From: Escherichia coli O157:H7
GTDB lineage: Bacteria > Pseudomonadota > Gammaproteobacteria > Enterobacterales > Enterobacteriaceae
Strand: one strand, 5' to 3'
DNA length: 64,000 nt
Assembly: GCF_013167455.1 (NCBI RefSeq)
Contig: NZ_CP038328.1
Position numbers: made by a program. The first letter of the stretch is position 1. Each line of letters opens with the position of its first letter. This document shows positions 27,001 to 30,000 of this stretch, piece by piece.

Positions 27001-30000
27001 ATATAAATTAATCAGTAACTTCATAAAAAGAATATAAGAAACAGATAATGCATGTATTTACACACATATCAGCACAATGATAGATTACCACCCCAGAAAC
27101 ACGATAAAGGTATAATTATGGAATTTTCCGTTATTTTTTTCTGGGTTATCACTGGTCTTATTACCATCTTATTCTTAAAATCAATAATAACCGATCTAAT
27201 AAAAAACCTAAACAAAACAGACATAGCGTTATATATATTGGCATTTTTATCAGCCGGATATACATTCCAGTATATTTACAATGACAATATATTTTCAGAA
27301 CTATGGGGAGTTGGCCTGTTTGTTACTCTGATAGTACTGAATATAGTATTTAATCTCTTTTTTAGACTCTTATTCATTCTCTCGAAAATGATATTAATGT
27401 CACGACATATAAGAAAGATGCAAAAAAAACTAAAACAGACGTCTGTGCCTGATTTTATTTATTATTCAATAGAAAAACACAACAAATATCCCATATATGT
27501 ATTACACATGCCATCAAACAATATAATTGAAATAGGCTACAATATAATAAACACCGATCTGGTCATTGGCGAAAAAATTCATTTCAGGACACTAAGCAAT
27601 CGTTCTTTATATTTTAACCTCACCCACCCCCCATTAATCGCCACAATAAAAGATGATGTGTTTTGCACTCTTCATGATTACTATAACCACAATAATGAAA
27701 CGAAATCCACTATTGACAATTACATATCAAAAATAAAGGATAATCATAATACCCCATGGTTATTAAACAACGAAAATGTTCAGGAATAAAAAAAAAGAGA
27801 CAATTCCCGAGATAAAACAAAAGAGCATAAACATATGAACCGGAAATTCTATTTCAAAAATATCCTGTGGGGAATGTGCCCCATTATAATATCCATATTG
27901 CATCTGATATATGACACACCAACAGAAGCATCGATAAAAGTTGACTTATTTCTGATACTCAGTGGCCTGGCCCTTCCTTGTTCAATATACCTGACAAAAA
28001 CAATCACACTAAAATACACATCCATATCATTCTGGAAAAAACCTCTTTTCTGGTCTTATGGTATATATCATTTTCATCTTGTTTATATAATGATATGTAT
28101 AGTTTTAGCAATACCTTCTGCAATTATCGTTTTATTCTTTCACTTTTATCAAAACATCACCAGAAACTGGAAGTGACAACCGCAATAATGAACATAAAAA
28201 GGCAAATCAGAATGGCAGTAAATCAATAAAGTACCATTTCATATGAATCATCAGAAAAACGGTGGACGCGACATCCAGCACGAGGCAAAACACAGCAACA
28301 AAATAAGCCGGATATCGCGCCCTGTACTTTTCTAACTCAACTCCCGGCATTGTGCAAGTTTTAATCGCAGGTGGATTCAGAGCCACGCCCCCATTGATTC
28401 AGCCTGAAGACACGTATATCCTTGGAGAAAGCAGGAATCTCATTGCTGTGAAATTCCTTACAGAATCTTCAGCCCCATTTTATGGGGCTTTTTTTGGTGC
28501 CCCCACGCTGTTACCACACTTTCGGGATGCGAATAAAAAAGCCCACAGTTTTTACACTGCGGACTTTTGTTTTTTCTTTGTGATTTGTGTGCAAGGGTGC
28601 GACTTTCGACCGAACCTTTGGCAACCGGATAGCGGGGACTGTTGTCCCCGCTGCGGTTTCTTACGGTTTACACTGCAAGAACGCCGCAATTTCCGACCAC
28701 ATGAAGCTTACCCTGAATTCACACGGTGATGCGTGTAACACCCAGACGGTCAGCAACATGGTCAGGCATAACATGCCCACAATGATCGTTTTTTGCGGCA
28801 TAGCACTTGCTCCTTTTACAGAGAGGCGCTAACCTTCCACTTGCTGAAGGTAGATGGTCAGGGCCTCGGGTTAACGTTTAAGTTGACTCGGGGCCTTTCC
28901 ACATCCGGCCTTCAGGTAATCCTTCCAGCCGTCAGCCGAAAGGCACCCGCGCGTAATGTACTGGTTTTCAGAGAGGTCCGCAATCTTCCGGTGACGAGAT
29001 CATCTGCACACGCCCCGGTGGGACGGGCTAACGGTATATTCAGGTGCAGGATCTCTCTGTCTGGTGCGTTTTTAAATTGTCAAACGCACCCTGGCGGCAA
29101 AATCAGCCACCTTTTTTCGCATCAACAAAACGCCCAAAACGCTGGGTAAAGCGTGCAACATTACCTTCTGAAGCGACAGTTCTCAGTTTACCTGTATAAA
29201 ACGGATGCGACTTAGAAGAAACGTCAATTGTAACATATGGGTAAGTTACACCATCCAGTTCAATTACCCGGTCAGTTTTGATCGTCGAACCGATCCTGAA
29301 GTACTCATCAATACTGGTATCGTGAAATACTACTGTACGGTATTCCGGATGGATATTCGGTTTCACAACAGTTTTCCCCCTTTAAGTGAAAATTCCGCAT
29401 AAAGGTACATATTCAGACGGTCAGATTCAACTGTCTGTTCTTATAACCTCACTCTCTTTCAGTATTACAATATGTTATATAATTATAAACTGGACTTCCC
29501 GAAAAAATCCATTAAATAAGAAGCGAGCCGTTGCGGAGGCTTGCTCTCTCCTTTAACCTCATGTGCAATATCCGTAACGCGCTCACATAAATCATCATCT
29601 GATAATATAACAACACCCATTATTTTATTCTGACCTAAAAACTTCTTATGAAATAAACGTTTACCCGACGTATCTGATCCCGCTGTTTTTACCTGTATCC
29701 TTTAACATACTTGAGAAGCCCGCTGAAAAAATATACCGTAAAGGCGGTTTCTCTGTCTTCCATAAACCTGTCGGATAAGAAGGGCATTAAATGAAAACCA
29801 AAAAAGTTATGATGATTGCACTGGTCAGCTCTGCGCTGGCTCTTTCAGGATGTGGAGCCATGGGCACAGCGATCAAAAAACGAAATCTGGAAGTAAAAAC
29901 CCAGATGAGTGAAACCTGAGGTAGCCTGAGTTTAACGGACACTCCTTCCTGAAATAGAATGGCATCAGAAGGAGCTAATAATGAGCAGAAAAACCCAACG

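Follow-up and report, generated by a model that had tools for sequence, protein, structure and literature searches.

The present analysis concerns a stretch of 64,000 nucleotides from Escherichia coli O157:H7 (NCBI RefSeq assembly GCF_013167455.1, contig NZ_CP038328.1; hereafter the window), and within it a small gene of the Hok/Gef toxin family on the minus strand at positions 28661-28801. An initial annotation, made from the sequence alone, had pointed to this open reading frame (ORF) as a type I toxin with structured flanks. We find there a toxin coding sequence (CDS), a long structured mRNA around it and, on the opposite strand, a predicted Sok-like antisense RNA. Altogether, these elements probably form an intact hok/sok-type type I toxin-antitoxin module of a subfamily with short toxins (45-46 amino acids, aa), which travels on prophages, integrating conjugative elements (ICEs) and plasmids.

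The toxin gene and its relatives

The ORF starts with ATG, is preceded at 8 nt by the Shine-Dalgarno (SD) sequence AAAGGAG (28810-28816, minus strand), nearly invariant in the family, and encodes the 46-aa peptide MPQKTIIVGMLCLTMLLTVWVLHASPCEFRVSFMWSEIAAFLQCKP; the 46 codons and the strong ribosome-binding site first read from the sequence are thus borne out. The peptide has a single hydrophobic segment (residues 5-19, with a maximum of 2.43 over a Kyte-Doolittle window of 15 residues) and a C-terminal CE...E.AAFL.C block that can be aligned with HokA, R1 Hok and PndA, in agreement with the single transmembrane helix and the Hok/PndA-like C-terminus that had been proposed. It matches the Pfam family HOK_GEF (PF01848) over residues 11-44 (E=1.1e-5, 25.4 bits) and PHROG 251 over its full length (E=9.2e-17), and in RefSeq the CDS is WP_001135715.1, 'Hok/Gef family protein'. 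HokA from E. coli K-12 is the closest named toxin (BLASTP, 38% identity, E=1e-10), with the MPQK start and the AAFL.CK end in common. These data confirm the proposed Hok/Gef identity: the ORF is a real toxin gene of this family.

The alignment also places the expected residues. C12, T14, C27, E28 and E37 of the peptide align with C16, T18, C31, E32 and E41 of the family, as listed in the text of a 2026 preprint surveying Hok proteins (bioRxiv 10.1101/2025.08.07.668861). The family L30 position is occupied by a proline; we considered this SPCE motif as a possible lesion and rejected the idea, since the same change recurs in several lineages. The curated NCBIfam cutoffs are not reached (31.8 bits against 89 for HokA, NF007290; 23.7 against 73 for the Hok subfamily, NF007279), so that the peptide belongs to a divergent branch and is not HokA itself. 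Relative to its homologs the CDS displays a pN/pS of 0.25-0.65, and exactly 46 codons are kept in 44 of 49 copies; by this substitution pattern, it is under purifying selection. The toxin locus looks intact.

It is also a locus already known: the gene is annotated, its leader has been catalogued and seen by RNA sequencing, and its CDS is part of a published toxicity screen. Megablast against 5426 complete E. coli genomes retrieves the region from 717 of them, with 539 records at ≥99% identity; the exact peptide is present on no fewer than 1000 contigs, where it bears the name 'Hok/Gef family protein', which is also its UniRef name. The description of the ORF as unannotated was therefore true of the ORF track used at the time and of nothing else. 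As for the leader, it is listed as 'sok_7' (a name from an earlier Rfam release) in strain EDL933 by Neuhaus et al. 2017 (PMC5331693). We mapped the EDL933 features onto the window through the sequences given in the supplements of that study, and the 'sok_7' sequence of Table S6 is identical to the window from 28948 to 28791, that is, to the first 158 nt of the transcript. With 2602 RNA-seq reads (RPKM 932, reads per kilobase per million) and 366 ribosome footprints (ribosome-coverage value 0.30) reported for it, the minus strand is shown to be transcribed from about 28948.

Regarding toxicity, the inducible expression assay suggested in the initial annotation appears to have been published for this very CDS, which the preprint (bioRxiv 10.1101/2025.08.07.668861) designates 82_1289 and reports as cloned under the name LRP165. 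According to its text, 42 of 45 tested Hok homologs were toxic; the non-toxic ones named there are 19_179, 60_1482 and 69_1540, and 82_1289 is not among them. From this text we infer that 82_1289 is toxic. The peptide falls in cluster 82 of the survey, and the relatives located next to P2 ogr, lom or tail genes fall in clusters 72 and 79. The toxicity assay included cloned representatives of each of these clusters, none of which is named in the text as non-toxic.

A sensitive BLAST search recovered copies spanning the whole unit (window 28960 to 28532) at 72-78% identity in 1749 genomes, 33 plasmids and 198 phage records. These relatives encode toxins of 45-46 aa; they adjoin P2-like ogr, lambdoid lom or J/tail-fibre genes, and some are cargo of IncI1/IncF plasmids. 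Another 70 units, with about 20 distinct peptides, came from a motif scan of IMG/VR, and the scan of a genome-contig collection with a 17-nt leader motif gave almost only chance matches, the real ones being in E. albertii and in one Citrobacter metagenome-assembled genome. One IMG/VR contig (L248, 4318-4742 and 5040-5464) carries two cluster-82-like hok units in tandem with an identical peptide. Phage 933W (NC_000924.1) holds an unannotated short-type hok of 46 aa at 45660-45800, adjoining lom, besides the annotated hokW/mokW/sokW at 58460-58734, and hence two hok loci of different branches. Since 933W holds both, we rejected hokW-sokW as the lom-adjacent close relative of the window locus. 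This system of the Stx phages Sp5 and 933W shares with the window its host lineage and its location on mobile elements, and it is an experimentally shown type I toxin-antitoxin system dependent on RNase III and Hfq; it differs by its branch, its 51-aa Gef-like toxin and its annotated mokW.

The structured mRNA and its predicted antisense RNA

The features that we assign to the toxin strand are the following.

28978-28983, minus: putative -35 box TTGCGG for the hok-type mRNA, with a spacer of 17 nt to the -10 box, its ATTG invariant in 10 BLAST-retrieved relatives
28955-28960, minus: putative -10 box TACATT, whose T, A and T are conserved; the likewise conserved 5' end GGGTGCC lies 6 nt downstream
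28528-28948, minus: full-length hok-type mRNA (421 nt), starting at the inferred +1 and including the whole terminator tail (homology extent, fold, sok_7 identity)
28935-28948, minus: tac element (5' end) GGGUGCCUUUCGGC, predicted to pair with 28595-28610 in the full-length RNA and with 28890-28902 in the truncated one, both pairings conserved
28890-28895, minus: ucb-like box GGCCCC, partner of GAGGCC in the full-length RNA and of tac in the truncated one
28863-28867, minus: GAGGC box, homologue of the R1 mok SD with no start codon after it (leader comparison with an R1-like locus, hokC and hokB)
28820-28827, minus: dcb or anti-SD box GCCUCUCU, its CUCU pairing with the toxin GGAG and its GCCUC with GAGGC
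28810-28816, minus: toxin SD
28661-28801, minus: toxin CDS, 46 aa, Hok/Gef (cluster 82, peptide 82_1289; ORF, profile matches, RefSeq)
28681-28689 with 28793-28801, minus: 9-bp start-codon helix between UUGCGGCGU and the start region AUGCCGCAA (RNAalifold)
28631-28652, minus: post-stop stem-loop, -19 kcal/mol, z=-4.4, 99.1% paired in the family
28595-28610, minus: fbi element GUCGAAAGUCGCACCC, pairing with the 5' end
28532-28568, minus: intrinsic terminator, a stem-loop and U-run in the fold, conserved in most relatives

The conserved boxes TTGCGG and TACATT, separated by 17 nt, lead us to put the +1 at 28948. A consensus promoter scan flagged no promoter on either strand, and the promoter calls for the mRNA and for the antisense RNA thus rest on homology and conservation. 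Homology with the relatives is coextensive with the 421-nt unit, whose predicted fold has a minimum free energy (MFE) of -176.7 kcal/mol (z=-7.39). From 28948 to 28790, the toxin strand matches Rfam RF01794 (E=1.4e-9, 50.5 bits, model positions 1-157), below the gathering score of 59; the short-Hok subfamily scores 35.6-55, against 118 for hokC, 110 for hokB and 87 for the R1-like locus. As tested on K-12, this model, though named 'sok', describes the leader of the hok mRNA in sense orientation: its K-12 matches lie on the strand of hokC and hokB, opposite the annotated sokC and sokB, and strand calls drawn from it are therefore inverted relative to the antitoxin.

The single-sequence MFE structure pairs nt 1-14 with nt 339-354, that is, tac with fbi (summed pair probability 13.9), and the helices are 89-97% paired in the family. 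On an alignment of 49 family sequences (A2), RNAalifold independently recovered the pairing of the two ends, a 5' hairpin that shows covariation, and the helices at the start codon and after the stop codon. The anti-SD CUCU pairs with the toxin GGAG in the full-length fold as well as in a fold where the Sok target is masked, and this SD/anti-SD hairpin is 96.5% paired across the family. The start-codon helix is 99.5% paired in 48 sequences when read as sense, versus 79.9% as antisense. The post-stop stem-loop, which the initial annotation had placed at 28628-28647 and whose true stem is 28631-28652, shows compensatory double changes at 5 of its 9 pairs among 48 relatives; on the model of R1 (PMC9841398), it is likely to be the 3' end of the processed, active mRNA and to protect it from exonucleases. 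Taken as a whole, a named structure of 43 pairs, including tac-fbi, the start-codon helix and the post-stop hairpin, is 92.6% paired versus 40-48% for slid controls, a contrast inflated by the derivation of the structures from the window sequence itself, and its covariation lies above that of all 500 shuffles.

When the RNA is cut at the post-stop hairpin, its 5' end is predicted to refold onto GGCCCC, and GAGGC (28863-28867) to pair with GCCUC (28823-28827). Both alternative conformations of the leader are kept throughout the family, with 96.7% pairing in the tac stem and 96.5% in the SD/anti-SD hairpin; the GAGGC/GCCUC pairing is conserved too. The folding of the leader proposed earlier as a check thus yields the tac/fbi, tac/ucb and GAGG/dcb pairings typical of hok, both predicted and conserved.

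A second hairpin, at 28472-28488, had also been attributed to the flanks of the toxin. It does exist (z about -3.7), and seven U residues follow it on the plus strand only (28471-28489). Because of this strand bias and of its position beyond the hok terminator, we consider it outside the toxin locus, as a plus-strand terminator of a convergent transcript.

On the opposite strand, the leader carries two predicted elements.

28807-28835, plus: predicted Sok promoter, -35 TTGCTC (28807-28812), 17 nt, -10 TAACCT (28830-28835), laid out as in sokB
28843-28902, plus: predicted Sok-like antisense RNA of about 60 nt, in which an unpaired 5' tail is followed by a long stem-loop and a final UUUCC

The predicted start is the G at 28843, 7 nt after TAACCT; upstream of K-12 sokB one reads TTGCCG, 17 nt, TAAGAT, 7 nt and G. 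Both boxes of the window promoter are invariant in the 49 family members. The antisense strand of this stretch folds at -30.1 kcal/mol (z=-5.09) versus -14.9 (z=-1.71) for the sense strand, and across the family its stem is 95.3% paired as antisense versus 83.7% as sense, a bias that is reversed for the tac-fbi and start-codon helices, better paired in sense. The core of the antisense stem, GGCCUCGG...CGGGGCC, is common to sokB and sokC, as is the promoter layout. Taken together, these features hint indirectly at a selected antisense RNA.

A leader without a mok frame

The general layout is that of hok/sok (parB) of plasmid R1 and of flm of F, which share with the window a small membrane toxin of one helix that keeps the Cys, Thr and Cys-Glu positions, and a long structured mRNA with tac/fbi, ucb, GAGG, dcb and a 3' stem-loop. 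R1 also has an antisense RNA of about 60 nt directed to the leader, with the same promoter placement as the one predicted in the window. On the other hand, the window toxin is only 30% identical to that of R1 (46 aa versus 52), its leader is 8 nt shorter between the Sok -10 box and the toxin ATG, and it has no mok frame whereas R1 requires one (PMC9841398). Scanning all three frames, we found no ATG, GTG or TTG frame starting in the window leader that reaches or crosses the toxin SD; the only frame overlapping the toxin is a 14-codon GTG ORF at -5, downstream of the SD. In contrast, a mok ATG was found at -57/-58 in all three controls (R1-like, hokC and hokB), matching the K-12 annotation of mokB and mokC (ATG at -58 and -57).

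Nor did any leader ORF appear conserved among the 49 relatives, the lengths ranging from 1 to 79 codons with stops scattered from -98 to +137. An ATG at 28902-28904 (-103) is invariant, in part because the search motif imposed it, and sits inside a conserved stem; the window ORFs from this ATG or the invariant GTG end at -76 and -56, ahead of the SD at -15. The site homologous to the mok ATG reads CUGACCAUC or CUAACC, with no conserved start. We examined as hidden mok candidates the invariant ATG/GTG ORF, a mini-ORF GUG-xxx-GGU-UAG and an AUC start at the mok-homologous site, and rejected them, none being conserved. The mok-like leader frame that the initial annotation proposed to look for is thus absent from the window and not conserved in the family. 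The preprint survey (bioRxiv 10.1101/2025.08.07.668861) covers coding sequences only, explicitly leaving aside Mok, Sok and mRNA structure, and calls Mok prediction 'not trivial'. Phrase searches of the literature for mok-less hok loci, of limited reach, returned nothing relevant. From these sequence comparisons and predicted folds, a subfamily with toxins of 45-46 aa and no conserved mok would be the sole point departing from the textbook, and a possibly novel one.

How could such a module work? Guided by the folds and by family conservation, we propose that the 421-nt primary transcript would be closed, tac being paired with fbi near the 3' end, with the toxin SD held by the upstream CUCU anti-SD and the start codon locked to codons 38-40. 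Slow 3' trimming to the post-stop stem-loop would take off fbi; the freed 5' end could then fold onto GGCCCC, releasing GAGGC, which would capture the anti-SD and leave the toxin SD partly open. A short-lived antisense RNA of about 60 nt (28843-28902, plus strand) would pair with nt 47-106 of the leader. Since there is no mok frame, it could not act by translational coupling as in R1. Most likely, the duplex would hide GAGGC and so let the anti-SD reclose the SD, cutting of the duplex by RNase III being a second route. Upon loss of the element the antisense RNA would decay first and the stable mRNA would kill the cell, so that the island or ICE would be stabilised; the module might also serve phage exclusion or the element's own life cycle. 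The predicted accessibilities are consistent with this scheme: the toxin GGAG has a probability of being unpaired of 0.13-0.46 in the truncated RNA, and masking the Sok target (nt 47-106, which contains GAGGC) brings that of the SD to at most 0.03, equal to the full-length RNA, which suggests that Sok may reclose the toxin SD directly. One could go a step further and assume, at somewhat less than an even chance in our judgment, that the short-Hok subfamily (clusters 82, 72 and 79, carried by Stx and P2-like prophages, by ICEs and by some plasmids) is a naturally mok-less hok/sok lineage where GAGG has been reused as an anti-anti-SD and where Sok gates the toxin SD through a three-way RNA switch, without coupling.

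Several points nevertheless weigh against a functional module. Most E. coli copies are at least 99% identical, and that set is thus uninformative on selection. The toxicity of 82_1289 is read off the text of the preprint and not off the per-construct results of its Fig. S4, and according to the same text it was obtained with an artificial promoter and SD and not at the native locus. To these should be added the inflated structural contrast mentioned above and the only partial opening of the SD in the truncated form. The other points would also be explained if the locus were a silent relic on a decaying ICE fragment, with a toxin never translated for want of mok and no functional antitoxin RNA. 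Indeed, R1 requires mok, and a mok-less copy might never be translated from its own mRNA; the two predicted promoters match the consensus poorly (3/6 plus 3-4/6) and escaped the scan; the start codon is paired in every predicted form (probability of being unpaired, 0.16-0.19); and the surroundings consist of IS66 debris and gene fragments. The initial annotation had proposed small-RNA sequencing to look for an antisense transcript; the sense leader is present among the EDL933 reads as sok_7, and the EDL933 survey (PMC5331693) lists no antisense RNA at the predicted position. However, the whole mok-less subfamily retains the 46-codon ORF under purifying selection, its SD, Sok-promoter boxes and helices are invariant or covarying, and the asymmetry of the leader stem in favour of the antisense strand points to a selected antisense RNA. 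The leader is moreover transcribed and bears ribosome footprints with a coverage value of 0.30, and the subfamily persists on active phages such as 933W. We therefore regard the relic as unlikely.

We attach a low probability to a canonical hok/mok/sok arrangement, where ribosomes would be coupled to the toxin start by a leader frame using a non-standard codon or by a short upstream ORF such as one that begins at the invariant ATG (-103). The conserved GAGG homologue of the mok SD, the footprints on the leader and the long overlapping frame that about 14 of the 49 relatives possess from the ATG at 28902-28904 or the adjacent GTG would fit such coupling, as would the caution of the Hok survey about predicting Mok. 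Yet the window ORFs stop well short of the SD, the stops are scattered across the family, the mok-homologous site has no conserved start, and the invariance of the ATG is partly an artefact of the search motif within a conserved stem. It could finally be that the module is functional but that its main task is phage defence by abortive infection, or a part in its carrier's life cycle, and not addiction, since the subfamily is concentrated in prophages and ICEs and hokW-sokW aids the release of phage Sp5 (PMC8621323). We give very little credit to this last view: the carrier in the window is a non-mobile remnant, hokW belongs to another branch endowed with mok, and such a role is compatible with the SD-gating mechanism and not a true alternative to it. 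An intact, mok-less hok/sok-type module thus stays our preferred interpretation.

Genomic setting and significance

The locus is situated in the tellurite-resistance/urease island of enterohemorrhagic E. coli (EHEC) (OI-43/48, SpLE1), where terW is followed by IS66 debris, a hypothetical gene, hok, a gene for a type B L31, then fragments of traT, of a transposase and of an autotransporter gene, and finally ureG to ureD. The initial annotation had taken the traT fragments as a sign of integrated F-like plasmid DNA. For the toxin locus this did not hold: a block of 2.8 kb (26495-29314) is 88% identical to an ICE (L257), and the traT pseudogene fragment (about 29775-29916, plus strand; 79-81% identical to F-like plasmid traT) lies outside this block, so that the toxin locus is ICE-derived cargo and not F-like plasmid DNA. 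Its closest relative, at 87% identity, is in the ICE of strain UCPROB-002, among genes for a conjugative ATPase, TIGR03756/03757 ICE proteins, TraG-N, an integrase and ArdC, with the same L31 gene upstream of hok and the same hypothetical gene downstream. Plasmid matches to the locus reach 71-78% only, on IncI1/IncF plasmids beside phage-type genes, except for records carrying the same ter/ure island (e.g. pB39_V).

Besides hok/sok, the ICE-like block contains an RNA motif, two membrane-protein ORFs, an abundant small RNA (sRNA) and the L31 gene.

26759-26910, minus: STAXI RNA motif (134 bits)
27052-27789 and 27835-28176, plus: AT-rich membrane-protein ORFs, the second not annotated in RefSeq strain TR01
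28253-28351, minus: sequence identical to EDL933 ncR1481381/ncR1085800 (PMC5331693 supplement), just downstream of the hok unit
29103-29366, minus: gene for ribosomal protein L31 of type B (YkgM-like), directly upstream of hok and in the same orientation

The pairing of L31 with hok is also seen in the UCPROB-002 ICE and in one IMG/VR contig (L144), and is absent from the other cluster-82 relatives. As for ncR1481381/ncR1085800, they are the two most abundant 'novel ncRNAs' of the EDL933 survey (RPKM 6404 and 8857) and were Northern-positive; their RPKM rose about 6-7-fold on radish sprouts and, less strongly, in cow dung (about 3-fold) and at pH 4 (about 2.4-fold) (PMC5331693). In the window, this RNA ends in a weak stem and U-run and overlaps a possible hydrophobic ORF of 47 aa from the ATG at 28350. 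Elsewhere in the window, Rfam matches at gathering level mark Esr41 (3481-3554, minus strand, 108.6 bits), a known EHEC sRNA from SpLE1/OI-43/48 (PMC5286369), and the 5' ureB sRNA (33631-33909, plus strand, 86.5 bits).

The toxin finding itself changes little: the gene is an ordinary and known one, and a modest regulatory question is left. For the organism, the locus could bias the retention of the tellurite/urease island; as this island is present twice in EDL933, each copy could cover the loss of the other. For the family, a widespread and evidently maintained subfamily devoid of mok would mean that Sok-type RNAs can also control a Hok toxin by another route, at variance with the model in which translation of mok is indispensable, and the mRNA switch could then be studied in a simpler system of two genes.

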